Assembly: GCA_964569655.1 (NCBI GenBank) | Contig: CAZMTN010000002.1 | Span: forward strand, 134,295-198,294 | DNA from: an uncultured Candidatus Saccharibacteria bacterium | GTDB taxonomy: Bacteria; Patescibacteriota; Minisyncoccia; Phycocordibacterales; Phycocordibacteraceae | Direction of reading: 5' to 3' | DNA: 64,000 nt | Part shown: positions 14,351-44,086 of the stretch, one piece after another | How positions within the stretch are numbered: position 1 is the first letter of the stretch | How the letters are laid out: each line of letters opens with the position of its first letter | Program-made: the position numbers and the translations under genes | Notes under the pieces: model-generated | Told to the model about the DNA's origin: nothing | The model's input: the letters and a program-made list of their open reading frames with translations, nothing else | Databases searched by the model: none

Positions 14351-14366
14351 GTTAGGAATGACTCTA

Positions 14367-14840: not shown

Positions 14841-14896
14841 GGCTATACAAAACTATACCACCGCCTGGCGCGCGTGGATTCTTTACCCACCCATAA

Positions 14897-15482: not shown

Positions 15483-15559
15483 CTGAGCCTCCTTTCAGGC
15501 TGGATTGTTCCAATCTGCGCGCACTATGTCATAGCGCTACGGAAAAGGAAATATAGGTG

Positions 15560-15645
15560 CGGAGGAGGTGAGATTCGAACTCACGGTCCCTTGCAGGACT
15601 CCTGTTTTCAAGACAGGCGCGATAGACCAACTCTGCCACTCCTCC
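15560..15645 (-). tRNA. tRNA-Ser (anticodon TGA)
   Basis: acceptor GGAGGAG/CTCCTCC; discriminator G; anticodon loop CTTGAAA; long variable arm; T-arm GAGTTCGAATCTC. Confidence 0.8.
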
Positions 15646-15694
15646 GTGCTCGAGAAGATACCACGTTTTCCGTTATATTTGCTAGGATGCGCCT

Positions 15695-16096: not shown

Positions 16097-16097
16097 C

Positions 16098-17078: not shown

Positions 17079-17081
17079 CGT

Positions 17082-17420: not shown

Positions 17421-17457
17421 ATAAAACTTCACGAGAGGAGGCGGTATACTAAGCTGC

Positions 17458-19623: not shown

Positions 19624-19916
19624 AATTGACTTCTCTCAGCGGGCTCGACATGAATCGCTTGGAATACGGCGAGCATCTGCGGCCGTTCCGCGACTGGATG
19701 ATCATGCTCGCCGTGTTCGCTGCGCTCCTCCTCATGAGCGCCCTCTGGAGCGCTTGGGTCTTCTATCGCGCATGGACCGGCGAATCGGTCGGCGCGGAGA
19801 CCCCGGCTGCTCCCGTGAAGACAGACGAGATCGAGGCGGTGAAGCGCGTCTTCGAGATCCGCGCGATCGAGGAATCGCGATACGGCGGCGAGTATCACTT
19901 CGTTGACCCCGCATAG
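19620..19916 (+). CDS. small membrane protein, possible pilus biogenesis accessory (PilP-like position)
   Basis: 98 aa; one TM helix; ATGA overlap with pilO. Confidence 0.45.
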   Translation: MKLTSLSGLDMNRLEYGEHLRPFRDWMIMLAVFAALLLMSALWSAWVFYRAWTGESVGAETPAAPVKTDEIEAVKRVFEIRAIEESRYGGEYHFVDPA

Positions 19917-19936
19917 GAGTGCGGTAGGGTAGTAGG

Positions 19937-20008
19937 GCCCCCGTAGCACAATGGATCGTGCAGGAGACTTCTAAGCTCTTGATCTTGGTTCGATTCCAGG
20001 CGGGGGCA
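19937..20008 (+). tRNA. tRNA-Arg (anticodon read as TCT)
   Basis: acceptor GCCCCCG/CGGGGGC; D-arm GCAC...GTGC; anticodon loop CTTCTAA with one stem mismatch; T-arm GGTTCGATTCC. Confidence 0.6.
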
Positions 20009-20018
20009 CAAGCGAAAC

Positions 20019-20100
20019 GGGCACGTGGCGGAACTGGTATACGCGTACGGCTCAGAACCGTATCCCGCAAGGGTTGAGGGTTCGAGTCCCTCCGCGCCCA
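20019..20100 (+). tRNA. tRNA-Leu (anticodon CAG)
   Basis: GTGGCGGAACTGGTATACGCG D-arm typical of tRNA-Leu; anticodon loop CTCAGAA; long variable arm; T-arm GGTTCGAGTCC. Confidence 0.75.
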
Positions 20101-20142
20101 CTCATATAAAGGAAAGAGCGCCCGTTTGGGCGCTCTTTCTCT

Positions 20143-20218
20143 TGGTGCGCGGTGAGGGACTTGAACCCCCGACCTTCTCTGTGTAAAAGAGTTGCTCTAC
20201 CAACTGAGCTAACCGCGC
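20143..20218 (-). tRNA. tRNA-Val (anticodon TAC), CCA encoded
   Basis: acceptor GCGCGGT/ACCGCGC; D-arm GCTCAGTTGGTAGAGC; anticodon loop TTTACAC; T-arm GGTTCAAGTCC; 3' CCA present. Confidence 0.75.
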
Positions 20219-20298
20219 GTCTGAGCAGGGTAACGCATCTTCCGGGTTTTTTGAAGGGGTGCCGCAACCTAGCTCCGGCAGAGGCGGTTCTAACCAAC

Positions 20299-20979
20299 AT
20301 GAACGCTCCTGCATCCATCGGCATCCTCATGGACGGCAATCGCCGCTGGGCGAAGGAGCAGGGACTCTCGGCGTATGAAGGGCATCGCGTCGGCGTAACG
20401 AAGATAAAGGAGGTGATGCGCTGGTCGTGGAAGAGCGGCGTGAAGGAGGTAGTGATCTACGGCTTCTCCACCGAGAACTGGAACCGCGCCCCGGAAGAGG
20501 TGCAGGGCCTCATGCAGCTGTTCGAATACACCTTCGGGGGGCCGGATCTCGAAGAGCTCATCCAGGAGGGCGTGCGCGTGCGGTTCATCGGAGAGCGCAG
20601 CCGCATCCCGGACAGCCTGAAGCGGAAGATGGAGGACGCGGAAATGCGCACTAAGGAACTTCAGAATGGGACGCTCATCGTCGGTCTCTCGTACGGCGGG
20701 CGGGCGGAGATACTCGACGCAGTGAATACTTTGCTCAAAGAAGGGAAGGAGCAGGTGGATGAGGCGGAATTCAAGGACGCGATGTGGAGCCGCGGCACGC
20801 TCGACCCGGACATGGTCATTCGCACGGGCGGAGACAAGCGTCTCTCGAATTTCCTCCCGTGGCAGTCCGTGTACAGCGAGCTCTTCTTCACGGACACGTA
20901 CTGGCCAGCGCTCACCGAAGAGGAGTTCGGCTCCATGCTCCATGACTTCAAGAACCGCGAGCGCCGGCATGGACGCTAG
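20299..20979 (+). CDS. uppS: undecaprenyl/isoprenyl diphosphate synthase (cis-prenyltransferase, UppS family)
   Basis: start at MNAPASIGILMDGNRRWA (the ORF begins inside the tRNA-Val); DGNRRWA and RTGGDKRLSNFLPWQ motifs. Confidence 0.85.
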   Translation: MNAPASIGILMDGNRRWAKEQGLSAYEGHRVGVTKIKEVMRWSWKSGVKEVVIYGFSTENWNRAPEEVQGLMQLFEYTFGGPDLEELIQEGVRVRFIGERSRIPDSLKRKMEDAEMRTKELQNGTLIVGLSYGGRAEILDAVNTLLKEGKEQVDEAEFKDAMWSRGTLDPDMVIRTGGDKRLSNFLPWQSVYSELFFTDTYWPALTEEEFGSMLHDFKNRERRHGR

Positions 20980-21004
20980 TACCTGAAGGAGATAGGGTAG
21001 GGAG

Positions 21005-21727
21005 ATGGAGATTCTCTACGAGGACGACGATATCGTCGCCATCAACAAACCCGCCGGCCTCATGACGCACGGGGACGGTCGCAATGATGTCCGGACCGTC
21101 GCGGACTGGTTCGCGGAAGCGTATCCGGCGTCTAAGGACGTCGGCGAGACGCAGCGCCTTACGGACGGCAGCGAGATTAAGCGCCCAGGCGTGGTGCACC
21201 GCCTCGACACCGATACCTCGGGCGTGCTCGTGCTCGCGAAGACGCAAGAGGCGCACGCGTTCATGAAGGCTGCGTTCCAGGAACGCGAAGCCCGGAAGAC
21301 CTACCTCGCGTTCGTGTACGGTTCGCCGAAGGAGAAGAAGGGGACCATCGATTTCCCGATCGGACGCTCCAAGAAGGATTTCCGCCTCCGCTCCGCGCAG
21401 CCGAAGGCGGGCGGCACGCTCCGCGACGCGGTCACGAAGTTCGAGGTGCTGGGCGACATCGGGACGCACGCGCTCATGAAGGTGATGCCCGAGACCGGGC
21501 GCACCCACCAGATCCGCGTGCACCTCAAAGCCATCCACCACCCGATCGTCGGCGACGTCCTCTACGCTCCGAACCATCCCCGCGATCTCGGCTTCGACCG
21601 CCTCGGCCTCCATGCCTGGCGCCTCGACATCCCGCTCCCGGCAGGCGGCAGGAAGGAGCTCGTGGCCCCGATTCCTGAGGATCTGGCCCTCGCCGGGGCG
21701 CGATTCCCGGGGTTTGCCTCCCTATAG
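21005..21727 (+). CDS. rluD: RluA/RluD-family 23S rRNA pseudouridine synthase (no S4 domain)
   Basis: 240 aa; catalytic HRLDTDTSGVLVLAKT motif. Confidence 0.75.
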   Translation: MEILYEDDDIVAINKPAGLMTHGDGRNDVRTVADWFAEAYPASKDVGETQRLTDGSEIKRPGVVHRLDTDTSGVLVLAKTQEAHAFMKAAFQEREARKTYLAFVYGSPKEKKGTIDFPIGRSKKDFRLRSAQPKAGGTLRDAVTKFEVLGDIGTHALMKVMPETGRTHQIRVHLKAIHHPIVGDVLYAPNHPRDLGFDRLGLHAWRLDIPLPAGGRKELVAPIPEDLALAGARFPGFASL

Positions 21728-21750
21728 GAGGCGTGTTACAGTGGCGCGAC

Positions 21751-22266
21751 ATGCAGGCAGTATTGTCTCCAGTAAAGGTCACTGAACGCGCACAGCTCGG
21801 CATCCGCGCGGGTGATACCGTGCGTGTCGAGCAGAAGATCATCGAGGTGAAGAAGGGCAAGGGCGCGGACAAGAAGGAGAAGATCGTGAAGACCGCCCGC
21901 ACCCAGAACTTCGAAGGCCTCGTCATCGCGGTCAAGCACGGCACGGAAGCCGGGGCTACCTTCACCGTACGCGCGACCCTCTCGGGCATCGGCGTCGAGA
22001 AGATCTTCCCGCTCTATTCTCCGGCCATCGAGTCCATCAAGATCGTCCGTCGCTCCGCCGTCCGCCGCGCGAAGCTCTACTTCATCCGCGAGAAGGCCGC
22101 TAAGGAGGTCCGCCGCCAGCTCCGCAACATGCGCATGGTGAACATCAGCACCGATGAGTCCATCGTCGAGCCGGTAGCCGAGCCAGTCGCTCCGGTAGAG
22201 GAGACCCCGGCAGCAGAACCGGCACCTGAAGAGGTACCGGCTGAGGAGGAGAAGGCGGCGGCGTAA
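21751..22266 (+). CDS. rplS: 50S ribosomal protein L19 with Glu/Pro/Ala-rich C-terminal extension
   Basis: start at MQAVLSPVKV; L19 core (RAGDTVRV...FEGLVIAV...FPLYSPAIESIKIVRR); about 40-aa acidic tail. Confidence 0.8.
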   Translation: MQAVLSPVKVTERAQLGIRAGDTVRVEQKIIEVKKGKGADKKEKIVKTARTQNFEGLVIAVKHGTEAGATFTVRATLSGIGVEKIFPLYSPAIESIKIVRRSAVRRAKLYFIREKAAKEVRRQLRNMRMVNISTDESIVEPVAEPVAPVEETPAAEPAPEEVPAEEEKAAA

Positions 22267-22316
22267 GGCCGCCGCGTGCGTTTTTAGTGAGACGAATGTA
22301 TAGTAGCGGAACACCT

Positions 22317-22403
22317 GCCCAGGTGGCGAAATTGGTAGACGTACTACCTTGAGGTGGTAGCGCCCGCAAGGGCTTGGAGGTTCGAGTCCTCTCCTGGGCA
22401 CCA
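22317..22403 (+). tRNA. tRNA-Leu (anticodon GAG), CCA encoded
   Basis: acceptor GCCCAGG/CCTGGGC; anticodon loop TTGAGGT; long variable arm; T-arm GGTTCGAGTCC; CCA at 22401-22403. Confidence 0.8.
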
Positions 22404-22541
22404 ATGTAAAAGGTCGGGGCACGTAGCGGTGTATACTGTATACGTGCTCGTACGGGAATATTCCCGCTGACGAGGTCAAATAGACCGAAACGGGCAATAG
22501 CAAAGCGCGTCCTCACGGGCGCGCTTTGCTATTATGGATAC

Positions 22542-23099
22542 ATGGCACTCTTCACCGGGAAAGGAGACGGCGGCACGACGAAAGTCATCGATTCGACCGA
22601 GCGCATCTCGAAGGCGTCCGCGATGCCCGAATGCCTCGGCACGCTCGACGAATTGAACTCATTCGTCGGCTTCGCGAAGGTGCGCGCGAATGGAGCCGGA
22701 GACCCGATGATCGGGGAACAGAAGACGTCGGCGATCCTCCATGAGATACAGGAGCAGCTGTTCATCGTGCAGGCGGAAGTAGCGGGGGCGGATAAGCGGA
22801 TAGGGGAGGAGAAGGTAACGTGGGCGAGCACCACGGTGAACGAGATCGAGAAGGTGCTGCCGCCCATCACGAACTTCACTATCTCCGGCGGCACCGAGCT
22901 CTCTGCCATCTTGGACGTCGCCCGCACCATCTCGCGCCGCGCGGAGCGCCGGGTGGTCGGCGTCGAAGACTTAGGGCTCCGGACGCTCTCTCCTGGCACC
23001 AAAGCGTTCATGAATAGGCTGTCCTCGCTCCTGTTCGCTCTCGCGCGTCTCGCGAATACGAGCGCCGGCATCGAGCGCGAGACGCCGTCGTATCGCTAA
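22542..23099 (+). CDS. ATP:cob(I)alamin adenosyltransferase, PduO/MMAB-type
   Basis: 185 aa; N-terminal FTGKGDGGTT...LDELNSFVG signature of the Cob_adeno_trans family. Confidence 0.7.
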   Translation: MALFTGKGDGGTTKVIDSTERISKASAMPECLGTLDELNSFVGFAKVRANGAGDPMIGEQKTSAILHEIQEQLFIVQAEVAGADKRIGEEKVTWASTTVNEIEKVLPPITNFTISGGTELSAILDVARTISRRAERRVVGVEDLGLRTLSPGTKAFMNRLSSLLFALARLANTSAGIERETPSYR

Positions 23100-23141
23100 G
23101 CAAAATCAGCGCATCGTGGTATAACGCACAGGTGCGTGCAT

Positions 23142-23214
23142 GGCGGCCTTAGCTCAATGGTAGAGCCCTGGTTTGTGGTACCAGTGGTTATGGGTTCGAG
23201 TCCCATAGGTCGCC
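23142..23214 (+). tRNA. tRNA-His (anticodon GTG) with encoded G-1
   Basis: extra 5' G pairing with discriminator C; anticodon loop TTGTGGT; T-arm GGTTCGAGTCC. Confidence 0.8.
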
Positions 23215-23247
23215 CTCGTAAGAGGGGTATTTGCTATACTGCCCCTC

Positions 23248-32185: not shown

Positions 32186-33853
32186 ATGGAAGAGAGGATA
32201 CGCGCCATCGTAGACGCCGCGCTCGGCACGAGCGTCCCGTTTTCCGTGGAGCGTCCCGGGGATCCGTCCCACGGCGACTACGCAGTGAACGCCGCCATGG
32301 TCGCGGCGAAGGAGCTCAAGAAGAATCCGCGCGAGCTCGCGGAGGTATTGGTAGAGGCGCTGAAGACAGGACTCGGCGATCTCGCTTCAAGCGTTGAAGC
32401 GGCAGGCCCGGGCTTCGTGAACATCACGCTCTCCAAGGGAGCGGTGGATGCAGTGTTGAGTACTGCCGCGGGAAGCGCGTGGGGAACGAACGCTTCGAGC
32501 GCCGGCAAGAAAGTGATGATCGAGTACGGCAATCCGAACCAGTTCAAGGAGATGCATATCGGGCACCTCATGAGCGCAATCATCGGCGAAGCGGCATCAA
32601 GGCTCATCGCGGCCTCAGGTGCCTCGGTACTGCGCGATACGTTCGGCGGAGATATCGGGCCGCATGTCGCGAAGGCGCTCTGGGCGCTCCGTAGGGACGG
32701 GGTCACCGATGTCGCTTCCGCCGCTGAGATCGGCAAGGCGTACGTCCACGGCGAGCGCGCGTACGCGGAATCGGAAGAAGCGAAGGCCGAGATCGACGCC
32801 TTCAATACACATCTCTACGATGTCGTCGCGAAGCAGGACGACCCGTCCTCGCTGTCTGAAGAGGACCGCACCTTGCTCGCGCTCTGGAGGAAGGGCAGGG
32901 AAGTATGCGTCGAAGAGTTCGCGCGCGTCTTCGAGATACTCGAAACCAAGCACGACTATGCCTTCTACGACAGCGATACCACGAAGGGAGGTCTCGAAGT
33001 AGTGCATGACGCGCTTTCGAAGGGCATCTTCACGAAGAGCGACGGCGCCATCATCTACGAAGGCGAGAAGAAGGGGCTCCATACGCTCGTGTTCGTCACG
33101 AGCCGCGGCACGCCGACCTACGAGACCAAGGACATCGGACTTGCGTTCCTCAAGGAGGAGCGCGTCCAGACCGACGAGATCGTCATTGTGACGTCAGTGG
33201 AGCAGATCGGGCACTTCAAGGTGTTCCTCGCTGCGCTCGAAGACATCGCTCCGCTCATCGCGAAGAAGACGAAGCACGTCGCGCACGGGCTCCTGCGCCT
33301 CACGACCGGCAAGATGTCCTCGCGCAAGGGGAACATCCTGAAGGCGATGGACATCATCCAGGAGCTCATCGAGAATGCGTCCGAAAAGAACCCGGACCCG
33401 CTCATCGCGCAGCAGGTCGCACTCGGCGCACTCAAATACATGATCCTCCGCCAGTCTCCTGGCGCGGACATCATCTTCGATCCGGAGAAGTCGCTCTCGC
33501 TCGAAGGAGATTCAGGACCGTACCTCCAGTACGCACTCGTCCGCGCGATGTCCGTGCTTTCGCAGGCGGAAGGGAAGGGAGATTTTAGTAATGGACCCGA
33601 GACGCCGTATCTCATCGAGCGCCTCCTCATCCACTTCCCGAAGGTGGTCGCACGTGCGGCAGACGATCTTGCGCCGCAGCTTCTCACCTCGTACCTCACC
33701 GAGCTCGCCGGTGAATGGAATTCCTTCTATGCCGCGGAGCGCGTCATCGGGGGAGAGCACGAAGCGTACAAGCTCGCGGTCGCTAAGGCCTTCGTGGAGA
33801 CCATGAGGAACGGCCTTTCTATACTTGCTATCCCGACGCCGGAGAGGATGTAA
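32186..33853 (+). CDS. argS: arginyl-tRNA synthetase
   Basis: 555 aa; class I HIGH-like region (NPNQFKEMHIGHL); KMSK-equivalent MSSRKG; C-terminal DALR anticodon-binding domain. Confidence 0.88.
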   Translation: MEERIRAIVDAALGTSVPFSVERPGDPSHGDYAVNAAMVAAKELKKNPRELAEVLVEALKTGLGDLASSVEAAGPGFVNITLSKGAVDAVLSTAAGSAWGTNASSAGKKVMIEYGNPNQFKEMHIGHLMSAIIGEAASRLIAASGASVLRDTFGGDIGPHVAKALWALRRDGVTDVASAAEIGKAYVHGERAYAESEEAKAEIDAFNTHLYDVVAKQDDPSSLSEEDRTLLALWRKGREVCVEEFARVFEILETKHDYAFYDSDTTKGGLEVVHDALSKGIFTKSDGAIIYEGEKKGLHTLVFVTSRGTPTYETKDIGLAFLKEERVQTDEIVIVTSVEQIGHFKVFLAALEDIAPLIAKKTKHVAHGLLRLTTGKMSSRKGNILKAMDIIQELIENASEKNPDPLIAQQVALGALKYMILRQSPGADIIFDPEKSLSLEGDSGPYLQYALVRAMSVLSQAEGKGDFSNGPETPYLIERLLIHFPKVVARAADDLAPQLLTSYLTELAGEWNSFYAAERVIGGEHEAYKLAVAKAFVETMRNGLSILAIPTPERM

Positions 33854-33980
33854 TTTCCGTAAAAGGTGGTATAACGGTCTCCAGCCAGCACCTTTCGGCG
33901 GGCGTAATCAGCAAACAGCAGGAGAGACTCGATTGGGGAAAAAGGGAAAAGAGAGTCAATGGGGCCGTCTGTGGCGCGTC

Positions 33981-34325
33981 ATGAATATGAAGCGCGACTT
34001 TTTCGCGGACTTCGAGTTCAAGCTCGCGTCTGAATTCGTCGCAGCGGCTGCCGCTTTCTACGGCGAAGAGGACGCTGCCGCGAAGCTGCAGGCGACGATG
34101 GACGCCGAGGCGGTCTATGACCGCAAGAAGGACGGTAAGAAAGCCATGTACCAGTACAAGATGCCCGAGTATGTGGCGATGTACGTTACCGAGGTGGAGC
34201 GCATGATCCACACGCTGCAGCGCGAAGCCGCTGAGCGCGCCCGGCGCCCTAGCCGCAGGGACCGCGGGCCCCGGTCGCACATCCGTGCGCCGATCCAGCA
34301 TCAGCGCCATCGCCGGCACGCCTGA
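33981..34325 (+). CDS. hypothetical protein (114 aa, basic C-terminus)
   Basis: ORF from MNMKRDFF; no motif. Confidence 0.4.
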   Translation: MNMKRDFFADFEFKLASEFVAAAAAFYGEEDAAAKLQATMDAEAVYDRKKDGKKAMYQYKMPEYVAMYVTEVERMIHTLQREAAERARRPSRRDRGPRSHIRAPIQHQRHRRHA

Positions 34326-34335
34326 AGCCGAAACG

Positions 34336-34396
34336 CACCATATCCTGGAGAAGAGCTCGCGCTCAGCTCCAGGATATGGAGGCGTTTTCTTTTTAC
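34336..34396 (+). terminator. long hairpin terminator upstream of ileS
   Basis: accatatcctggag...ctccaggatatgg 13-bp stem followed by TTTTCTTTTT. Confidence 0.6.
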
Positions 34397-34422
34397 CCCG
34401 TAAACGCTAGGATGAGTGCACT

Positions 34423-37400
34423 ATGGAGAAATCAGAGGCGGCGCTCCGGGAAGAGAAGATCCTCCAGTTCTGGGAGGATCGAGGCATCTTTAAGAAGTCC
34501 CTGGAGAAGCCTTCGCCGAAAGGGGAGTTCGTCTTCTACGAAGGTCCGCCTACCGCGAACGGGCGCCCCGGCATCCATCACCTCGAGTCTCGAGCGTTCA
34601 AGGACGCCATCCCGCGCTATAAGACCATGCGCGGCTACCGCGTCCCGCGCCGCGCCGGCTGGGACACGCACGGCCTCCCGGTAGAGCTCGAGGTGGAGAA
34701 GGAGCTCGGGTTCTCGGGGAAGAAGGAGATCGAGACCTACGGCATCGCGGCGTTCAACCGCAAATGCCGCGAGAGCGTGCTCCGCTACATCGGCGACTGG
34801 GAAGTCTTCACGAAGCGCATGGGCTACTGGGTGGACGCGTCCAAGGCGTACTTCACCTTCGATGCCTCCTATATGGAAGCGGTGTGGGGCGTGTTCAAGA
34901 CGGCAGCGGACTCCGGCCGCCTCTACAAGGATTACAAGGTGGTGCCGTGGTGCCCTAGATGCGAGACGGCGCTCTCCTCGCACGAACTCGCGCAAGGATA
35001 CGAGGACGTCTCGGACCTCTCGGTGACAGCGAAGTTCGAGCTCGTCGACGAGCCAGGTACCTACGTCGTCGCCTGGACCACGACGCCGTGGACGCTTCCG
35101 GGGAACGTCGGCCTCGCGGTGGGTCCGAACATCAAGTACGGCATTTACATAAAGGAAGGCGTGAAGGTCATCGTCGCGGACGCGCGCGCAAGCGTGCTCG
35201 GCGAAGGCTGGGAGCGGAGTTCGGACGCGCCGGACCTCGTCGGCAAGGCATACAAGCCGCTCTACGATTTCCTCTCGCCGCTCGCGGAAGGGAAGGAGAA
35301 GGAGAATCTGCAGAACGCGTGGAAGATCTACGCGGCTGATTTCGTAACTACCGAGGACGGTACCGGCGTGGTGCACACGGCAGTGATGTACGGCCAGGAC
35401 GACTTCGCGCTCGGCCAGAAGGTAGGTTTGCCGAAGGTGCATCTTGTCGCGCCGAACGGCCGCTACGTATCCGGCACCGGCTTCCTCGAGAACCGCTTCG
35501 TCCGGGACGAGGAGGTAGCGGTGGATATCATCAAGGATCTCGCGGGCCGCGGGCTCCTCTTCAGCAAGGCGAAGTACCAGCACACGTATCCGTTCTGCTG
35601 GCGCTGCAAGACCGCGCTCATCTATTACGCGCGCGATTCGTGGTACTTCCGCATGACGGATCTCGCGGGGGAGCTTTCGAAGGAGAACAAAGGCATCCAC
35701 TGGGAGCCGAGCCATTTCCGCGACGGCCGCATGGGCGAGTGGCTCGCGAACGTGAAGGACTGGGCGATTTCGCGTGAGCGCTACTGGGCGACGCCGCTTC
35801 CGGTATGGCGGAGCGAGGATGGGGATCAAGTTGTCATCGGATCGGTGGAGGAGTTGAAGGCGCGTACGAAGAAGAGCGGAAATACGTACTTCTTCATGCG
35901 CCACGGCCAGTCCGAGACGAATGTCCGAAAAATCGCTAGCGTCGACGCGGAATCGAAGTACCCGCTCACGGCGAAGGGGCGGGGGCAGGCAGTGGCCGCT
36001 GCGAAGAAGCTCAGCGGGGTGACGCGCATCTATACCTCGCCGGTGCTCCGCGCGCGTGAGACCGCAGAGATCGTCGCTGAGGAGGTCGGATTCCCGAAGG
36101 AAGAGATCATCGTCGACGATCGGCTCCGCGAGTATGGATTCGGCGATCTCGAAGGGAAGTCGATTACCGAGTTCCAGAGGATGCAGGAAGGGCTCGGCTA
36201 CGCGGATCCGGTCCCGGGCGGGGAGAGCTATCAGGATGTGAAGAATCGCGTCGGCGATTTCCTCTATGAGATCGAGACCGCGCTCGCGGGCGAGACCGTG
36301 CTCATCGTGACCCACGGCGCAGTGAACGAGGTGCGCGAGGCGCTGGCTTCGGGCGCCGATAAGAAGGTCTCGAAGGAGCTTGTCGATTCCGGGTACGTGG
36401 AAGCGGGCACCGTCTCCCCGCTTGCATTCGTCCCGCTCCCGCACAACGAGCGCTACGAGCTCGACCTCCATCGCCCGTACATAGATGATGTGGTACTCCT
36501 TTCAGATTCCGGGAAAGCCATGCGCCGCACGCCAGAGGTTATGGACGTCTGGTTCGACTCAGGCGCCATGCCGTTCGCGCAGAACGCGAAGGATCGGAAG
36601 CCTGGATCCTTGAAGGACTATTTCGATACCGTGCCGTACCCGGGTCAGTACATCAGCGAAGCGATAGACCAGACGCGCGGTTGGTTCTACACCCTGCTCG
36701 CAGTCGGCGTGCTCATGGGGCGCGGCGCATCCTATAAGAACGTGATCTGCCTCGGGCACCTCCTCGATGCCGAAGGGAAGAAGATGTCGAAGTCGAAGGG
36801 GAACGTGGTGGTGCCGGGCCCCGAGATGGACAAGTGGGGCGTCGATACCATCCGCTTCTGGATGTACAGCGTGAATCAGCCCGGAGACAGCAAGAATTAC
36901 GACGAGAAGACCATGAAGGAAGCGTCGCGTACGCTCTCGTGGCTCACCAACAGCGCGAAATTCTACGAGCTCTTCGCTGCGGATAAGAAAGGGGGAGCCA
37001 AGAAGCAGTTCATCGACCGCTGGATGGAGCAGCGCGTGGCTGACACGGTGCGCGCCGTCACCGAGGACCTCGAGGGCTACAAGCTCTATGAGGCGGCTAC
37101 CGAGGTCGCCTCGCTCTGCGAGGACCTCTCGCAGTGGTACGTGCGCCGCATCCGCGATCGCGCGAAGGAGGGGGACGCTGCCGCAATCGGCACGCTGCGC
37201 CATGCGCTCAAGTCGATCGCGCTGCTTGTCGCGCCGTTCGCGCCGTTCATCGCGGAGGACGTGTATCAGGTGGTAAAGCAGGAGACGGATCCGGAAAGCG
37301 TGCATCTCGCGCAGTGGCCGGTCGCGAAGGAATCATTCCTTTCGCGGTGGTTCAATAAGGACACGTCGGTCGCTGAGATGAAGAGGGTGCGCTCGCTCGC

Positions 37401-37755
37401 ATCCGAGGCGCTCATGCTCCGCCAGAAGGCGGGCAGCAAGGTGCGTCAGCCGCTCGCGAGCCTATCCATCCCAGGCACGCTCTCTGCGGGAGCGCAGGCG
37501 CTGCTCGCTGAAGAAGTGAACGTGAAGCAGATCATCTGCAACGCCCCCGAGCTTGCTCTCGACACCAACCTCACCACCGAGCTCATCCGCGAAGGGGACG
37601 AGCGCGAGATGCTCCGTGCGGTCGCGGAAGCACGAAAGACGCTCGGCCTCTCGCCGAAGGATAGGATGCGCGTCGACGTGAACGCGGAGGGCGCATACGC
37701 GGTCGAGCTCTCCACCGGCACGCAGAAGTTCGATCTCGTCCCTGATGCGGCATAA
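34423..37755 (+). CDS. ileS: isoleucyl-tRNA synthetase with an inserted histidine-phosphatase (PGAM-like) domain
   Basis: 1110 aa; HIGH region (PTANGRPGIHH), CP1 editing domain, WAISRERYWATPLPVW, DVWFDSG, KMSKS (KMSKSKGN); about 230 aa inserted between the WxISRxR and DVWFDSG motifs carrying RHGQSETN and THGAV motifs. Confidence 0.9.
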   Translation: MEKSEAALREEKILQFWEDRGIFKKSLEKPSPKGEFVFYEGPPTANGRPGIHHLESRAFKDAIPRYKTMRGYRVPRRAGWDTHGLPVELEVEKELGFSGKKEIETYGIAAFNRKCRESVLRYIGDWEVFTKRMGYWVDASKAYFTFDASYMEAVWGVFKTAADSGRLYKDYKVVPWCPRCETALSSHELAQGYEDVSDLSVTAKFELVDEPGTYVVAWTTTPWTLPGNVGLAVGPNIKYGIYIKEGVKVIVADARASVLGEGWERSSDAPDLVGKAYKPLYDFLSPLAEGKEKENLQNAWKIYAADFVTTEDGTGVVHTAVMYGQDDFALGQKVGLPKVHLVAPNGRYVSGTGFLENRFVRDEEVAVDIIKDLAGRGLLFSKAKYQHTYPFCWRCKTALIYYARDSWYFRMTDLAGELSKENKGIHWEPSHFRDGRMGEWLANVKDWAISRERYWATPLPVWRSEDGDQVVIGSVEELKARTKKSGNTYFFMRHGQSETNVRKIASVDAESKYPLTAKGRGQAVAAAKKLSGVTRIYTSPVLRARETAEIVAEEVGFPKEEIIVDDRLREYGFGDLEGKSITEFQRMQEGLGYADPVPGGESYQDVKNRVGDFLYEIETALAGETVLIVTHGAVNEVREALASGADKKVSKELVDSGYVEAGTVSPLAFVPLPHNERYELDLHRPYIDDVVLLSDSGKAMRRTPEVMDVWFDSGAMPFAQNAKDRKPGSLKDYFDTVPYPGQYISEAIDQTRGWFYTLLAVGVLMGRGASYKNVICLGHLLDAEGKKMSKSKGNVVVPGPEMDKWGVDTIRFWMYSVNQPGDSKNYDEKTMKEASRTLSWLTNSAKFYELFAADKKGGAKKQFIDRWMEQRVADTVRAVTEDLEGYKLYEAATEVASLCEDLSQWYVRRIRDRAKEGDAAAIGTLRHALKSIALLVAPFAPFIAEDVYQVVKQETDPESVHLAQWPVAKESFLSRWFNKDTSVAEMKRVRSLASEALMLRQKAGSKVRQPLASLSIPGTLSAGAQALLAEEVNVKQIICNAPELALDTNLTTELIREGDEREMLRAVAEARKTLGLSPKDRMRVDVNAEGAYAVELSTGTQKFDLVPDAA

Positions 37756-38314
37756 GTATCCGAGCGAAGCCATCGTGCTTGCGCGGACGCCGCTCGCGGA
37801 GGAGAGCGCGCTCCTCACACTCCTCACGAGAGAGCTCGGCCTGGTACGTGCCCGTGCGCAGGGAGTGCGCAAGCCCGGCGCGAAGCTGTCCGCCTCGCTC
37901 CAGACCTTCTCGGAAGCGGAAGTGGTGCTCATCGCGGGGAAGGAGGGATGGCGCGTCTCTGGCGCGCTCCTGCAGGAAGCGTGGTTCCCGAAGCTCTCGC
38001 GTGCGGCTCGGACGCGCGCCGGGCGCATCGCGTCCCTGCTCTTGCGTCTCGTGCATGGCGAATCGCCGGATCCGCACGCCTACGACATATTCCGGAACGC
38101 GCTCATCGCGTTCGCAGAGTTCCCGGAGGACCAGCATGATGCCATCGAGTGCTTGGCAGCGCTCCAGCTCCTTTCCATACTCGGCCTCGACGCCGGAGCG
38201 CTGCCCGGCGCCGCAGCAGAGCCTTTCACCGAGGAAGCGCTCGCATCCGTCACGAAGGAGCGCGCGTCGTATATCGCTCGCGTGAACCGGGGCATCGCTG
38301 CCTCGGGCCTTTGA
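37745..38314 (+). CDS. recO: DNA repair protein RecO
   Basis: 189 aa; N-terminal OB-fold pattern AIVLARTPLAEESALLTLLTRELG. Confidence 0.7.
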   Translation: MRHKYPSEAIVLARTPLAEESALLTLLTRELGLVRARAQGVRKPGAKLSASLQTFSEAEVVLIAGKEGWRVSGALLQEAWFPKLSRAARTRAGRIASLLLRLVHGESPDPHAYDIFRNALIAFAEFPEDQHDAIECLAALQLLSILGLDAGALPGAAAEPFTEEALASVTKERASYIARVNRGIAASGL

Positions 38315-38328
38315 GTTATACTGGGCGC

Positions 38329-40209
38329 ATGCCTCACGAAGAAGATAGCGCTCTCGAGCGCATGCGCTCCCGCCTCTACGCGCCGAATGCGGACAAGGAG
38401 GCGCTCGGGCAGGATGAGCTCAGCGAGCGCGCGAGCGAGGTGCCCCGCGGATGGAATCCGCCCCCGGAGATGCCCAAGAAACCTACCTACAAGACCCTGC
38501 CGCTCTCATTGAAGTTCCTTCTCGGGGCGCTCGGCTTCTGCATCGTCGCCGGCCTCGCCACCGCCTACTTCCTCTTCATGGGCGGCAGGACCGTATCCAC
38601 GGACAACATTGATATCGATATCGAGGCGCCGGTCACGGCTGCCGGCGGAGACACCATCTCCATCCAGATCGCGATCGAGAACCGCAACCCGGTCGCCATC
38701 AAGGATACGGACTTCTCGGTGGAGTTCCCGGAAGGGACCCGCTCCGCCGACGACGTCACGAAGCCGTTCACCCGCTATAACGACACGCTCGGGGAAGTGG
38801 AATCCGGCCGCGCGGTGGTGCGCACCATCCGCGCTACCGTCTTCGGCGCGGAGAACAGTACTGTCCGCATCCCGATCCGGCTCGAGTACCGTACGGTCAC
38901 CTCGAACGCGGTGTTCGTGAGAGAGGAGGTGTACGAGCTCACTATCACGTCCTCGCCGATGTCGGTCACGGCGACGTCGGTGTCCGAGATCTCGTCCGGC
39001 CAGCCGCTCACCGTCTCGCTCTCGGTCCGTTCGAACGCTACTGAGCCGCTGACCGATGTCGCGCTCAAGCCTGAGTTCCCGTTCGGCTTCACGCTCGGCG
39101 AGGCGTCGCTTCCGCTTGAGAGCGGCCTCTTCGATCTCGGCACGCTGCGTCCAGGCCAGGAGCGGAAGATCACGGTCTCGGGGACGCTCGCCGGCGAAAA
39201 TAATGACGAGCGCGTCTTCCGGTGGAGCGCCGGATCGGTCGCGACGAGCACCAACGGAGCGCTTGGCGTCGTGTTCGCGACCGCCGAGTCGTCGGTCACC
39301 ATCACGCGCCCGTTCTTCGACGTATCCCTCTCTTTGAATAACGAGACGACCGGCACGCCGGTCGTCGCTGCAGGGCAGACGGTGCAGGGCGTTGTGCGCT
39401 GGCGCAACACGCTCGATGATCCCATCACGGACGGCTCCGTCATCATCGCGCTCTCGGGGAACGCTTACGACCCGAAGAGCGTGGTGGCGGACAACGGCTT
39501 CTACCGCTCCTCCGATAACACCATCCGCTTCGACCGCGACACGGACTCGGGGCTGCGTTCCATCGCGCCTGGAGACACTGGGGTAGGGACCTTCTCGTTC
39601 CGGATCAAGTCCGGCAGCGAGCTCGACTCGCTCCGGAACCCGTCCGCGACCTTCACTGTCTCCTCCTCCGGCCGCCGCGTCGGCCAATCCGGAGTCCCGG
39701 AGTCGCTTACCGCGGTCATCACTCGCTCGGTGAAGATCGCGACCGGGATCTCGCTCGAGTCGCGCGCCGTGCGCTCGGTCGGGCCGTTCACGAACACGGG
39801 CCCTATCCCGCCCGAGCCCGACCGGGAGACGACGTACACCATCATGCTCACCGCGCAGAACGACGTGAACTCCATCGGCGGCGCGACGGTCACCATGACG
39901 CTTCCGTCGTACGTCCGCTTCACGGGGCTCACCAATCCGAACGGCTCGGTCACCTACACCGAATCCACTCGCACGGTGAAGTGGGTGCCGGGGGACATCG
40001 GCCCGAACACGACGAAGCAGGCATCTTTCCAGGTCGGATTCACGCCGAGCTCGTCGCAGTCCAATTCGAGCCCGATGATCGTGTCCGCGCAGAGCCTCAC
40101 CGGCACCGACCGCTTCACGCAGACCAGCATCACGAGCACTGCGCCGATGCTCACCATCGAGACCGATACCGACCCCGCCTACGATAAGGAGGATGGCTCG
40201 GTAGAGTAG
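38329..40209 (+). CDS. large membrane-anchored surface protein with repeated beta-sandwich (CARDB/DUF11-like) segments
   Basis: 626 aa from MPHEED; one TM helix near residue 70; Thr/Ser/Val-rich repeated about 100-aa units; a TATACT -10-like element 8 nt before the ATG. Confidence 0.6.
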   Translation: MPHEEDSALERMRSRLYAPNADKEALGQDELSERASEVPRGWNPPPEMPKKPTYKTLPLSLKFLLGALGFCIVAGLATAYFLFMGGRTVSTDNIDIDIEAPVTAAGGDTISIQIAIENRNPVAIKDTDFSVEFPEGTRSADDVTKPFTRYNDTLGEVESGRAVVRTIRATVFGAENSTVRIPIRLEYRTVTSNAVFVREEVYELTITSSPMSVTATSVSEISSGQPLTVSLSVRSNATEPLTDVALKPEFPFGFTLGEASLPLESGLFDLGTLRPGQERKITVSGTLAGENNDERVFRWSAGSVATSTNGALGVVFATAESSVTITRPFFDVSLSLNNETTGTPVVAAGQTVQGVVRWRNTLDDPITDGSVIIALSGNAYDPKSVVADNGFYRSSDNTIRFDRDTDSGLRSIAPGDTGVGTFSFRIKSGSELDSLRNPSATFTVSSSGRRVGQSGVPESLTAVITRSVKIATGISLESRAVRSVGPFTNTGPIPPEPDRETTYTIMLTAQNDVNSIGGATVTMTLPSYVRFTGLTNPNGSVTYTESTRTVKWVPGDIGPNTTKQASFQVGFTPSSSQSNSSPMIVSAQSLTGTDRFTQTSITSTAPMLTIETDTDPAYDKEDGSVE

Positions 40210-40228
40210 TTCGTGGTAATACAACCCT

Positions 40229-41554
40229 ATGGCTGAACCCACCCTCATGGAGAAGATCGTCTCGCTCGCGAAGCGCCGCGGCTTCGTGTTCCCGGGCTCC
40301 GAGATCTACGGCGGTCTCGCGGGCACCTATGACTACGGCCACTACGGCCTCATCCTGAAGAACAATATTAAGCAGCTCTGGTGGCGGATGATGGTGGAGG
40401 AGCGCGACGACATGTTCGGCGTAGACGCCGCGATCCTGATGAACCCGAAAATCTGGGAATCGTCCGGGCACGTCTCCGGCTTCTCTGATCCGCTTACTGA
40501 GTGCGAGAAGTGCAAACGCCGCTTCCGCGCGGACCAGCTCGACGACCCGACTACCTGCCCCGAGTGCGAAGGGAAGCTCGGCGAGGCGCGCCAGTTCAAT
40601 ATGATGTTCAAGACGCAGATCGGCGCTTCCGAGGATGCGTCCTCCATTTCGTACCTCCGCCCGGAGACGGCTGGCGGCATCTTCGCCAATTTCAAGAACA
40701 CCGTGGATACGCTTCATCCGAAGCTGCCGTTCGGCATCGCACAGATCGGCAAGGCGTTCAGAAATGAGATCGCGCCGCGCGACTTCATCTTCCGCCTCCG
40801 CGAGCTCGAGCAGATGGAGGTTGAATATTTTGTACGTCCGAGCCAGTGGCAGGAAGCGTTCGAGATGTGGCGCACCATGATGCACAGCTTCGCCGAAGCG
40901 GTCGGTCTCAGGACCGAGGCAGTGCACGAGCTCGAGGTAGCTGATGGGGATCGCGCCCATTATTCGAGGCGCACCATTGATTTTGAGTTCGACTACCCGT
41001 TCGGCAGGAAGGAGCTCTGGGGCCTTGCGTATCGCACCGACTTCGACCTCTCCGCGCATCAGGACGGCTCGGGAGTGAACCTTGAATACATGGATGAGGA
41101 AACGAAGGAGAAGTTCATTCCGCACGTGATTGAGCCGTCTCTTGGCGTCGACCGCACTCTGCTTGCCATCCTAGCGAGCGCTTACCGCGAAGATGACCTC
41201 GGCGGCGAGGTCCGCACGTATCTTGCCCTCGCGCCGAAGATCGCGCCGGTGAAGGCCATGGTCTCTCCGCTTTTGAAGAATAAGCCTGAGCTCGTCGAGA
41301 AGGCGAAGGAAGTACGCAAGCTGCTCCAGAAGGTGCATCCGGCCATCGCGTGGGACGACAACGGCAACATCGGCAAGCGCTACCGCCGCCAGGACGAGAT
41401 CGGCACGCCGTTCTGCATCACCGTCGATTTCGACACGCTCGGCGAGAATCCGGAGCTCCTCGATACGGTCACGCTGCGCCACCGCGATAGCGGGGAACAG
41501 GAGCGCCTCACTATCGCTGAAGCTGCGGAGCGCATCCGCGCTGCAGTTTCCTAA
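40229..41554 (+). CDS. glyS: glycyl-tRNA synthetase, class II alpha2 (archaeal/eukaryal-like) type
   Basis: 441 aa; N-terminal MEKIVSLAKRRGFVFPGSEIYGG; class II motifs; C-terminal anticodon-binding domain. Confidence 0.88.
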   Translation: MAEPTLMEKIVSLAKRRGFVFPGSEIYGGLAGTYDYGHYGLILKNNIKQLWWRMMVEERDDMFGVDAAILMNPKIWESSGHVSGFSDPLTECEKCKRRFRADQLDDPTTCPECEGKLGEARQFNMMFKTQIGASEDASSISYLRPETAGGIFANFKNTVDTLHPKLPFGIAQIGKAFRNEIAPRDFIFRLRELEQMEVEYFVRPSQWQEAFEMWRTMMHSFAEAVGLRTEAVHELEVADGDRAHYSRRTIDFEFDYPFGRKELWGLAYRTDFDLSAHQDGSGVNLEYMDEETKEKFIPHVIEPSLGVDRTLLAILASAYREDDLGGEVRTYLALAPKIAPVKAMVSPLLKNKPELVEKAKEVRKLLQKVHPAIAWDDNGNIGKRYRRQDEIGTPFCITVDFDTLGENPELLDTVTLRHRDSGEQERLTIAEAAERIRAAVS

Positions 41555-41566
41555 GACGCCCGTTCA

Positions 41567-41600
41567 ATCGCCCTGAAAAGGGCGGTTATGCTATATTTCC
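41567..41600 (+). terminator. weak rho-independent terminator after glyS
   Basis: cgccct-gaaa-agggcg followed by an AT-rich tail. Confidence 0.4.
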
Positions 41601-41603
41601 CCT

Positions 41604-42647
41604 ATGGATAGACAGCTCGGCATCTCCATCACCTCGGGCACCCTCATCAAGGCCATCGTCATCGGCGTAGCCGCATACCTGGTCTGGATCCTCCGGGACC
41701 TCCTCCTCCTCATCCTCACGGCCATCGTGATCGCGTCCGCCATCGAGCCGGGCGTGGTCTTCTTCACGCGCCACCGCATCCCGCGCCTTCTCGCGGTGCT
41801 CCTCATGTACCTCATCGTCTTCGGGTCTTTCTTCACCATCATCTATTTCTTCCTCCCACCGCTCCTCGCGGACGCCTCCTCCTTCTTCGCGTCCCTGCCG
41901 CAGTACTTGAATTCCTTCCAGCCGGAGAGCTCCTTGGTAGGCGTGACGGACGCCGCATCGCACCTCACGAGCGAGCAGAATTCCATCCTCACCGCGCTCG
42001 ACATCTTCCGCGGCGCGTTCACGACCGGCACGAGCGGCGCCATCCACCTCATCTCGACGTTCTTCGGCGGCATCTTCTCCTTGCTGCTCGTCATCGTGCT
42101 CTCGTTCTACTTCGCGATGCAGGAGACCGGCATCGACGACTTCCTCCGCCTCATCACGCCGAAGAAGCATGAAGCGTACGTGGTGGACCTGTGGCTGCGC
42201 GCCAAGGCGAAGATCGGCCTCTGGATGCAGGGCCAGCTCCTCCTTTCCGTAATCGTCGCCGTGCTCACCTCGCTCGGCCTCTTCATCATGGGCGTCCCGT
42301 ACGCGCTCCTGCTCGGCATCATCACCGGCATGGCGGAACTGGTGCCGATCTTCGGCTCCCTGGTCGCCGGCGTGATCGCCATCATCGTGGCATTCGGCGC
42401 CGGCGGTCTCCCGCTCGCGTTCATCGTGGCGGGCCTCTACGTGATCATCAACCAGTTCGAGGCGAACCTCATCTATCCGCTGGTGGTGAAGAAGGTGGTG
42501 GGCATACCACCGCTACTCGTGATCATAGCCCTCATAGCTGGGGGCGAGATCGCCGGTTTCCTCGGCCTCCTCCTTTCCGTGCCTATCGCTGCTGCCGCGC
42601 AGGAGTTCTTCTCGGACTACTCGAAGAGCAAGCAGCTCATCTCGTAA
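41604..42647 (+). CDS. AI-2E family transporter (PerM/UPF0118 permease)
   Basis: 347 aa; 7-8 TM helices; characteristic C-terminal PLVV...GGL.G.LL.PI block. Confidence 0.7.
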   Translation: MDRQLGISITSGTLIKAIVIGVAAYLVWILRDLLLLILTAIVIASAIEPGVVFFTRHRIPRLLAVLLMYLIVFGSFFTIIYFFLPPLLADASSFFASLPQYLNSFQPESSLVGVTDAASHLTSEQNSILTALDIFRGAFTTGTSGAIHLISTFFGGIFSLLLVIVLSFYFAMQETGIDDFLRLITPKKHEAYVVDLWLRAKAKIGLWMQGQLLLSVIVAVLTSLGLFIMGVPYALLLGIITGMAELVPIFGSLVAGVIAIIVAFGAGGLPLAFIVAGLYVIINQFEANLIYPLVVKKVVGIPPLLVIIALIAGGEIAGFLGLLLSVPIAAAAQEFFSDYSKSKQLIS

Positions 42648-44086
42648 TGCGCCGCTACCTCACGACAACCCTGCCGTACGTGAACGACAAGCCGCACATC
42701 GGGCATGCGCTCGAGTTCGTGCAGGCGGACGCGTACGCGCGTACGCTTCGCGCGGGCGGGGACGAGGTGTTCTTCAACACCGGCACCGACGAGCACGGTT
42801 CGAAGATCTACAAGATGGCGAACGAGGCGGGGCAGACCCCGCAGGACTATGCCGACCGCTTCGCGGAGCAGTTCAAGAAGCTCCATGCGCTCCTCGGCAT
42901 CTCGTACGATGCCTTCATCCGCACGACGGATCCGGGTCACGTGGCGGCAGCCGAGGAGTTCTGGAAGCGGTGCGCTGCTGCCGGCGACATCTACAAGAAG
43001 GCGTACCAGGTGAAGTACTGCATGGGCTGCGAGCTCGAGAAGACGGATTCCGAGCTCTCGAACGGGCGCTGCATGCTCCATCCGAACCTCGAGCTCGAGC
43101 TCCGCGATGAGGAGAACTATTTCTTCCGCTTCAGCAAATACGAGGATGCGCTCTCGAAGCTCTATCGCGAGCATTCGGAGCTCGTGGTGCCGTCTTTCCG
43201 CCTGAACGAGTTCACCTCGCTCATGGAGAAGGACGGCCTCCAAGACTTCAGCATCTCCCGATTAAAGTCGAAGATGCCGTGGGGCGTCTCGGTCCCGGGA
43301 GACGAGGAACAGGTCATGTATGTCTGGTTCGACGCGCTCGTGAGCTACATCTCGACGCTCGGCTGGCCTGACACGGAGAAGTTCGACGCGTTCTGGACCG
43401 GCAAGGCGATCCAATTCGCCGGGAAGGACCAGGTCCGCCAGCAGGCCGCGATGTGGCAGGCGATGCTCCTGTCCGCGGGACTCCCGCCGACGGGGCAGAT
43501 TTTCATACACGGGTTCGTGACGAGCAACGGGCAGAAGATGTCGAAGTCCCTCGGCAATACGGTTGATCCGGTCGAATACGCGGAGAAGTACGGCGTGGAC
43601 GCGTTCCGCTACTTCGTGCTGCGCCACGTGCACCCTTCGGAAGACAGCGATTTCACCCGCGAGCGCTTCGAGGAGGTCTATACCGCGAACCTCTCGAACG
43701 GCCTCGGGAACCTGGTCGCGCGCGTGATGAAGCTCGCCGAGGATAATTTCACGGCGCCGGTGACCCTCACCGAGGAGGACGTCGCCATCGAGCCGGCATT
43801 CACCGAGCACATCGAGAAGTTCCGCTTCAACGATGCGATGGACCTCATCTGGGAGCACATCGGCAAGGGAGACGCCTTCATGACGGAGCACGAGCCGTAT
43901 AAGAAGGTGAAGAGCGAGGATGAGCAGATAAAGGCGGAAGGGAGGTTCGAGATCGAGAAGCTGGTGCGGCACGTCGCGAAGGTGGCTGCGCATTTGGCCC
44001 CCGTGATGCCGAAGACGTCGGAGACTATGATGAAAGCGGTGAAGGAGAACAAGAAGCCGGAGAATCTCTTCCCGAGGCTCGGATAA
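42647..44086 (+). CDS. metG: methionyl-tRNA synthetase (short form without C-terminal tRNA-binding domain)
   Basis: start at MRRYLTTTLPYVNDKPHIGH (HIGH); zinc knuckle CxxC...CxxC; KMSKS; TAATG overlap with the upstream stop. Confidence 0.88.
   Translation: MRRYLTTTLPYVNDKPHIGHALEFVQADAYARTLRAGGDEVFFNTGTDEHGSKIYKMANEAGQTPQDYADRFAEQFKKLHALLGISYDAFIRTTDPGHVAAAEEFWKRCAAAGDIYKKAYQVKYCMGCELEKTDSELSNGRCMLHPNLELELRDEENYFFRFSKYEDALSKLYREHSELVVPSFRLNEFTSLMEKDGLQDFSISRLKSKMPWGVSVPGDEEQVMYVWFDALVSYISTLGWPDTEKFDAFWTGKAIQFAGKDQVRQQAAMWQAMLLSAGLPPTGQIFIHGFVTSNGQKMSKSLGNTVDPVEYAEKYGVDAFRYFVLRHVHPSEDSDFTRERFEEVYTANLSNGLGNLVARVMKLAEDNFTAPVTLTEEDVAIEPAFTEHIEKFRFNDAMDLIWEHIGKGDAFMTEHEPYKKVKSEDEQIKAEGRFEIEKLVRHVAKVAAHLAPVMPKTSETMMKAVKENKKPENLFPRLG

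Follow-up and report, generated by a model that had tools for sequence, protein, structure and literature searches.

A predicted PhoE-like histidine phosphatase domain nested in the catalytic core of a type-2 isoleucyl-tRNA synthetase from the candidate phyla radiation

Why should the isoleucyl-tRNA synthetase (IleRS) of a bacterium of the candidate phyla radiation (CPR) contain, within its catalytic domain, what looks like a second enzyme? The question is raised by a 64,000 nt stretch of DNA (hereafter the window) from an uncultured Candidatus Saccharibacteria bacterium (assembly GCA_964569655.1, contig CAZMTN010000002.1, positions 134,295 to 198,294), in which ileS occupies positions 34423..37755 of the + strand, stop codon included, and encodes a type-2 IleRS of 1110 amino acids (aa) with a nested phosphatase domain in one unbroken open reading frame (ORF). 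As the initial annotation of this DNA had proposed, the arrangement is an in-frame domain insertion, with the KMSKS motif and the remaining IleRS encoded downstream. A search of a 5.8-billion-protein collection found PF00300 (His_Phos_1) together with IleRS domains in all 120 of the best homologues, the sample to which the conservation values below refer unless stated otherwise. In the window protein, Pfam recognizes tRNA-synt_1 in two pieces with His_Phos_1 between them, followed by Anticodon_1 (aa 865-1011) and DUF5915 (aa 1044-1089), and TIGR00392, the NCBIfam equivalog for isoleucine-tRNA ligase, matches two stretches that flank the insert with 784.2 bits against a cut-off of 621.4. As judged from the sequences compared here, this appears to be a real, lineage-wide and undescribed bifunctional architecture.

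Alignment with the closest solved type-2 enzyme (IleRS2), 8C8W, delimits the insert. Residues 7-480 of the query align with residues 11-476 of 8C8W, and residues 679-1020 with residues 485-826; because the alignment resumes at residue 679, ~198 residues stand where 8C8W has an 8-residue loop (residues 477-484). The initial annotation had described ~230 inserted residues in a linker normally of ~60, so that the insertion stands and its size is revised. The inserted branch-1 histidine phosphatase domain covers aa 481-678 (35863..36456, +), with a Pfam core at aa 490-638 and a family hidden Markov model match at aa 486-682, and lies between the W-x-ISRERYW strand (aa 447) and the DVWFDSG motif (aa 708-714, 36544-36564, +). 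Of the Rossmann fold, the first half belongs, together with the CP1 editing domain and the W-x-ISRERYW strand (aa 447-455), to the N-terminal part of IleRS upstream of the insert (aa 1-480, 34423..35862, +), and the second half, together with the anticodon-binding and C-terminal domains, to the C-terminal part downstream of it (aa 679-1110, 36457..37752, +). From the general architecture of class Ia synthetases, the insertion loop is presumably the CP3 connective region, a label that we assume. A paper on IleRS structure names a CP core, CP1, CP2 and CP3, with their boundaries given in a figure only.

The junctions are conserved. The chain returns to the synthetase through F669-V-P-L-P-H-N675...E-L-D-L-H-R-P-Y-I-D688 (36427..36486, +), in which F669 is 99% conserved, P671-N675 92-97%, and D681, H683, P685 and D688 100%; from E679 on, the query aligns with SIELHKPYVDD of 8C8W. 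With N487 included, the junction residues (N487, F669, P671-N675) are 92-100% conserved, and the motif-to-motif distance that spans the insert is held to 261-271 aa. Mean identity among the homologues is 46% within the insert versus 72% and 62% in the synthetase core.

Such an arrangement might be an assembly chimera, a frameshifted gene pair or an intein-like mobile insertion, and the C-terminal junction, H674-N675, does bear a superficial resemblance to the end of an intein. An identical protein is present in NCBI (P0001), however, and the architecture is shared by 119 more clusters, drawn from independent assemblies and as little as 61% identical. Since a continuous ORF with matching junctions is found in more than 100 independent assemblies, the insertion is neither an assembly nor a gene-calling artefact. 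The insert does not differ from its flanks in GC content (0.62-0.64), the composition profile gives no signal of horizontal transfer, and the fold is an ordinary His_Phos fold. An intein was also considered and rejected, as no Hint family was found in Pfam and the HN is followed by Glu/Asp, not by Cys, Ser or Thr. The probability that we attach to any artefact or selfish element is negligible. On the opposite strand, two ORFs (34432-36471 and 36559-37305, minus) gave no match in the family search and are regarded as spurious in GC-rich DNA. The 64-kb window has no second His_Phos copy, and the arginyl- and methionyl-tRNA synthetases (ArgRS, MetRS) that it encodes have no such insert.

The synthetase that hosts the domain appears to be intact. 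In an alignment of 62 Parcubacteria homologues, all at least 62% identical to the query, KMSKS (aa 787-791, 36781-36795, +; K787-S791), DVWFDSG, WTTTPWT, GTGxVH and many residues of the anticodon domain are invariant, as are the editing-domain residues W218, T219, T220, P222, W223 and T224 and G313, T314, G315, V317 and H318. The class I signature, read from the translation, has the non-canonical form G50-I51-H52-H53 (34570..34581, +), that is, GXHH replacing HXGH, with H52 and H53 invariant and G50 conserved in at least 90% of the same homologues. The best match in the PDB, by sequence and by fold, is IleRS2 of Priestia megaterium (8C8U/V/W; E 5e-212; template-modelling (TM) score 0.75), and the top match is the GVHH mutant, 8C8W. 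According to Brkic et al. (2023, PMC10485003), the GXHH form is present in natural IleRS2 and is tied to mupirocin hyper-resistance. The window protein is likewise a type-2 enzyme in which the first and third positions of HXGH are swapped. It is not an acquired mupirocin-resistance enzyme of the MupA/MupB type, as it scores 651.7 with the MupB and 630.1 with the MupA model, against an NCBIfam cut-off of 1900. The window IleRS keeps every signature, editing and anticodon-binding element and, because these motifs are kept and the neighbouring genes are housekeeping genes, it is presumably the housekeeping IleRS of the cell.

Is the insert an enzyme, and which one? PF00300 matches aa 490-638 with 118.9 bits (gathering score 21.7; E 2.9e-34), and the hallmark motifs that the initial annotation had recognized are all in place, RHGQSETN at aa 493 (35899, +), TSPVLRARETAEIV at aa 538 and VLIVTHGAVNEV at aa 626 (both +), with the catalytic pentad aligned to that of PhoE. 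R493-H494-G495 (35899..35907, +), the phosphate-binding Arg and nucleophilic His of the RHG motif, align with R9/H10 of PhoE, a numbering counted from the alignment with the help of family knowledge; R543 (36049..36051, +), the second phosphate-binding Arg (S-P-x-x-R), aligns with the PhoE TSxxGRAxETA; E570 (36130..36132, +), the putative general acid/base, with DERLRE; and H631-G632 (36313..36318, +), containing the second catalytic His, with VLIVTHG. Across the 120 homologues, which are 61-100% identical to the query, R493, H494, R543 and H631 are 100% and E570 is 97% conserved, so that the catalytic positions are 97-100% conserved versus 20-60% at neighbouring positions. The same residues persist in 153 more diverged copies, taken from representatives of 50%-identity clusters and 30-52% identical to the query: R-H-R-x-H is present in 153/153 and the full pentad, R-H-R-E-H, in 146/153, with Asp replacing Glu in 3 more. 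The insert thus keeps the full catalytic set of a PhoE-like branch-1 histidine phosphatase domain, and these catalytic residues are under strong purifying selection while the remainder of the domain drifts. The insert is also acidic, with a net charge of -9 (mean -9.75 over the 120 homologues, never positive), which argues against a general role in RNA binding.

The initial annotation had called the insert PGAM-like, and at the level of the superfamily this holds. As CPR genomes are streamlined, the domain might be the cofactor-dependent phosphoglycerate mutase (dPGM) of the cell, or CobC, SixA or a further named member of the His_Phos family, that became fused to ileS during genome reduction, and the best NCBIfam match to the insert is indeed dPGM_arch (96.7 bits). 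Every equivalog cut-off is, however, missed by a wide margin, both for the mutases (NF038349 dPGM_arch, 96.7 < 225; PRK01295, 51.4 < 316; GpmB PRK03482, 58.3 < 261) and for CobC, SixA and PspA (TIGR03162, 81.5 < 162.9; TIGR00249, 30.5 < 74.5; NF045917, 43.1 < 350). The dPGM signature has H-G-N after the second catalytic His; the query has T-H631-G-A-V, and its homologues mostly have Ile or Ala at position 633, not Asn. The closest solved relative by sequence is a phosphatase, PhoE of Geobacillus stearothermophilus (1EBB/1H2E, E 2e-15), followed in the PDB by TIGAR, fungal phosphoglycerate mutase, Shb17, fructose-2,6-bisphosphatase, PspA and CobC. As related synthetases have up to four copies of the domain, unexpected for a glycolytic enzyme, a fused mutase or other named family member is very unlikely, and the insert is better termed PhoE-like than a mutase.

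The model of the full protein that the initial annotation had suggested was generated with AlphaFold2 from a shallow alignment of 62 sequences, all at least 62% identical (mean predicted local distance difference test (pLDDT) score 82.5, predicted TM score 0.73). Residues 481-680 are predicted with more confidence than any other part (pLDDT 86-97), with a regular alternation of strands and helices. The junctions have pLDDT values of 84-93 (84-91 for the return junction), comparable to those of the domains, and no disordered linker is predicted. A fold search with the full-length model returns synthetases only. Confidence is low (pLDDT 46-71) at aa 701-800 (36523-36822), in the second half of the Rossmann fold from DVWFDSG to KMSKS, and at aa 41-60 (34543-34602), around GXHH, although the same alignment gives high values for the insert and for both the editing and the anticodon domain. 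The low values could result from the shallow alignment or reflect real mobility. Conservation and model together suggest the signature of an enzyme selected for catalysis and rigidly built into its host.

How widespread is this architecture? The survey for which the initial annotation had also called indicates that it is lineage-wide and that the domain occurs in valyl-tRNA synthetases (ValRS) and in other loops as well. Where taxa are given in the source records, which is the case for a minority of the proteins, the best homologues come from Paceibacterota, Pacebacteria, Kaiserbacteria, Minisyncoccia, Parcubacteria and Patescibacteria, and they are named solely 'isoleucyl-tRNA synthetase' or 'class I tRNA ligase family protein'. 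With the insert alone as the query, an exhaustive HMMER search of 1.84 billion representatives yielded 1628 matches at E <= 1e-10. Among the best 150 of these, 109 are flanked by IleRS or ValRS sequence on at least one side, 29 of them at full length. Full-length carriers of the domain at the canonical site, one of which is from Candidatus Brennerbacteria (UniProt A0A1G1XM41), can be as little as 36-46% identical to the query across the synthetase core, and the insertion is thus an old one that typifies much of the Parcubacteria. The initial annotation had considered that the insert might turn out to be common and already annotated in IleRS families; common it is, being standard in IleRS from a large part of this group, but annotated in IleRS families it is not.

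Some IleRS have a tandem pair of domains at the canonical site (P0219, P0249, P0261), and the pair is itself a conserved subfamily. Outside the synthetases, the closest relatives of the insert include free-standing tandem His_Phos-His_Phos proteins of 360-450 aa, for example P0211 (MFT4308263.1, Candidatus Woesearchaeota), P0173, P0176, P0196, P0204, P0208, P0216, P0226, P0250 and P0253, and the two halves of each such protein usually match each other best. The P0211 family was considered as a specific neighbour of ileS or valS, and turned out to be a generic PhoE-like group present in Acidimicrobiia, Anaerolineae, Patescibacteria and others.

In ValRS from Gracilibacteria and Peregrinibacteria, which pass the valS equivalog cut-offs, the domain recurs. 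It is present in 73 of the 120 best ValRS clusters, as one copy in 59, two in 12, three in 1 and four in 1, and absent from 47, which include Gracilibacteria, Peregrinibacteria, Magasanikbacteria and Nomurabacteria; the ValRS insert is therefore a presence/absence polymorphism among close relatives. Most ValRS copies occupy the homologous counterpart of the IleRS loop, and some lie at a second site, located upstream of W-x-ISRQ. From W-x-ISRQ to D-x-WF there are 43-50 aa without an insert versus ~220, 420 and 620 aa with one, two and three copies (proteins P0241 and P0280-P0393; in P0293, the copies are at aa 488-670, 700-880 and 883-1076).

IleRS from Candidatus Peribacteria/Gracilibacteria (P0152, P0172, P0164, P0224; loci L001, 3001-7275 of CAZGJL010000001.1, L002, 3001-6585 of JACKFV010000001.1, and L003, 11-3466) have copies in other loops, directly after DxWFxSG and ~65 residues past KMSKS at the start of the anticodon-binding domain, with up to three insertion sites in one protein. 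These sites were assigned by piecewise phmmer mapping, as motif positions obtained with regular expressions are unreliable in these proteins, whose nearest insert-free relatives are spirochaete IleRS. Because junction sequences are unrelated among Parcubacteria IleRS, ValRS and Peribacteria IleRS, separate insertion events are likely. Identity between nearest-neighbour copies of the domain is 35-50%, a divergence too deep for independent insertions to be counted, and intragenic duplication or relocation may account for part of the diversity.

What, then, might the domain do within a synthetase? The initial annotation had suggested that it could act on a nucleotide or aminoacyl-adenylate by-product, or have a moonlighting or regulatory role. 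In the explanation that we rank first, a complete PhoE-like phosphatase domain has taken the place of a short loop at the surface of the Rossmann-fold catalytic domain, resulting in a two-enzyme polypeptide in which the insert is joined to the housekeeping type-2 IleRS of a bacterium assigned to the Parcubacteria (Paceibacteria) through short, ordered and conserved junctions. The insert would hydrolyse a phosphomonoester through a phospho-His494 intermediate, with H494 as the nucleophile, R493, R543 and H631 binding phosphate and E570 acting as the acid. Our best guess for the substrate would be a small phosphomonoester resembling a nucleotide or sugar phosphate, as for PhoE. The insert would act as a largely autonomous module tethered to the synthetase, rather than as a precisely positioned part of the aminoacylation site, because related enzymes have one to four copies in several loops, one of them beyond KMSKS. 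The synthetase would supply a permissive loop and constitutive expression, and the tether itself has apparently been selected, since the domain is found in both IleRS and ValRS with unrelated junctions. The variety of loops and copy numbers, the acidity, the poorly conserved substrate cap and the small-molecule phosphatases among the relatives favour autonomy. Taken as a whole, an active, autonomous PhoE-like module with a selected tether, architecture included, is probable, if modestly so.

Several observations weigh against this explanation. All fusion partners among the best 150 representatives are IleRS or ValRS, for which autonomy gives no reason, and autonomy also leaves unexplained why the domain is nested rather than encoded by a separate gene or fused end to end. 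The conserved and confidently modelled junctions suggest a fixed orientation, which might mean that the domain is truly coupled to the synthetase. Conservation of the catalytic residues might reflect ligand binding alone, and the substrate-cap region is so poorly conserved that the sequence gives no substrate. The extra sites in Peribacteria could stem from intragenic duplication or relocation rather than from independent insertions.

The specific and recurrent host range would be better accounted for if the phosphatase worked in cis, on a target bound by the synthetase or on the synthetase itself, so as to repair or protect the charging of tRNA with Ile or Val. Candidate targets would be a tRNA acceptor end bearing a 3'-phosphate or a pyrophosphate, a synthetase residue that has been phosphorylated (a serine of the KMSKS loop modified by a toxin kinase of the HipA/HipT kind, for instance), or AMP or another product. 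There are precedents, with toxin kinases acting on class I synthetases (HipA on GltX, HipT on TrpS) and toxSAS enzymes pyrophosphorylating the CCA end of tRNA. The conserved, ordered junctions, the nesting itself and the location of the domain in or beside the second half of the Rossmann fold, which contains KMSKS, are all in keeping with action in cis, as is the occurrence of up to four copies, which is hard to explain by gene dosage when a free gene would serve. In conflict with this are the acidity of the domain and its presence in several loops and in tandem arrays, unexpected if precise geometry mattered. The nearest characterized relatives are, moreover, phosphatases of small molecules and not of proteins, and no toxin or kinase is seen near ileS, which has housekeeping neighbours. 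We consider action in cis possible but distinctly less probable than a tethered, autonomous enzyme. The domain might also be a repair or immunity device for the charging of tRNA with Ile and Val that removes an inhibitory phosphate or pyrophosphate placed on the KMSKS region of the synthetase or on the tRNA acceptor end by a toxin, a phage or a host enzyme, in which case CPR bacteria would have acquired it repeatedly, in IleRS and in ValRS, under that pressure; we regard this role as unlikely.

A non-catalytic role is somewhat less likely again. The domain would then be a sensor or an allosteric regulator that binds a phosphorylated metabolite, or a module for dimerization or scaffolding, with the catalytic residues kept for binding. 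That the free-standing relatives are often tandem two-domain proteins, and that inserted copies are also paired, would fit a domain prone to pairing, and the ordered junctions are consistent with such a role. Pseudo-enzymes, however, usually lose one or more residues of the pentad, and here the full set, general acid Glu and nucleophilic His included, is kept over very deep divergence.

Four synthetase genes are located on one strand within 12 kb (32186-44086, +): argS (32186-33853, +), ileS, a gene for a class II synthetase of the HGTP type (40229-41554, +) and metS, within an ORF at 42191-44086 (+). Interspersed among them are recO, an unassigned 686-aa ORF (38149-40209, +) that follows recO downstream of ileS, and a gene for an AI-2E transporter, and thyA, tmk and glyA lie just upstream of argS (28.7-31.5 kb). 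The gap between argS and ileS is ~570 bp (33854-34422), with ORFs at 33825-34325 (+) and 33828-34319 (-), the first of which has no match in Pfam. Nine tRNA genes lie within 16 kb (7519-23215), for Lys, Arg (three), Ser, Leu (two), Val and His, and none is for tRNA-Ile. A protein resembling 3-dehydroquinate (DHQ) synthase, with DHQ_synthase and DHQS_C domains, is encoded at 15906-17078 (+). Such a protein would be unexpected if the organism, like CPR bacteria in general, does not synthesize aromatic amino acids, and it may instead serve a different pathway as a sugar-phosphate cyclase. PG_binding_1 is the sole recognizable domain in each of two large proteins (639 and 566 aa) encoded side by side at 57090-60774 (+).

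Aminoacyl-tRNA synthetases, which are essential, count among the most thoroughly studied enzymes. We know of no role for a phosphomonoesterase in aminoacylation or proofreading, and catalogued accessory domains of synthetases serve tRNA binding, editing or, in eukaryotes, signalling. The deep maintenance of the domain in one CPR lineage and its recurrence in the paralogous ValRS of another imply a selected link between phosphate-ester hydrolysis and the charging of tRNA with Ile and Val that current knowledge does not predict. The proteins provide test cases for how CPR bacteria pack extra functions into core genes, for whether phosphorylation is used in them to regulate or to attack synthetases or tRNAs, and for the size of insertion that the catalytic core of class Ia enzymes tolerates. 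There is also a consequence for annotation, as the name under which they often appear at NCBI is just 'class I tRNA ligase family protein', which leaves the phosphatase invisible in metabolic reconstructions. As the initial annotation had supposed, the insert appears to be undescribed. Full-text searches of the open-access literature gave no account of a class I synthetase that contains a histidine phosphatase, and no dedicated NCBIfam model for a phosphatase-bearing IleRS gave a match. The word 'phosphatase' does not occur in the text of the AARS Online database paper, and no phosphatase fusion was found in a targeted reading of the 2023 IleRS2 paper (PMC10485003) and of a 2026 preprint on IleRS domain evolution. 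Both domains do appear in the precomputed Pfam annotations of these proteins, so that the architecture is visible in databases, where it has neither a name nor any discussion.

Compared with known systems, both parts of the protein and the principle of nesting are, in our assessment, known, and the combination, its conservation and its recurrence are new. A hydrolase nested in a loop of the aminoacylation domain, with the catalytic fold intact, is familiar from the CP1 editing domain of IleRS, ValRS and leucyl-tRNA synthetase and from the INS domain of bacterial prolyl-tRNA synthetase; these hydrolyse the esters of mischarged aminoacyl-tRNAs and have folds that differ from that of a histidine phosphatase. 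PhoE (1EBB, 1H2E) shares with the insert its length of ~200 aa and the motif set RHG, SxxxR, DxRLxE, GE and THG, but is a free-standing enzyme of broad specificity, whereas the insert, ~30-35% identical as read from the alignment, is nested and a predicted phosphatase. The P. megaterium IleRS2 (8C8U/8C8V/8C8W; PMC10485003) is likewise a type-2 enzyme, and the GXHH signature of the window protein is the form that was both engineered in that study and found there in natural IleRS2; the loop at 477-484, however, has 8 residues where the window protein has a phosphatase domain of 198. A curated precedent for an IleRS with an extra, unrelated enzymatic domain exists in NF040702 'ileS_w_GNAT', in which that domain is an N-acetyltransferase and not a phosphatase; with a score of 270 (cut-off 1999), the window protein is not a member. 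The bifunctional RNase H/acid phosphatase of NF005567 (Rv2228c type) joins a CobC/PhoE-like His_Phos domain to a nucleic-acid enzyme, and the insert scores 83 bits with this model, short of the cut-off of 326; there, however, the partner is a different one and the two enzymes are fused end to end, whereas in the window IleRS the putative phosphatase is nested within the synthetase.

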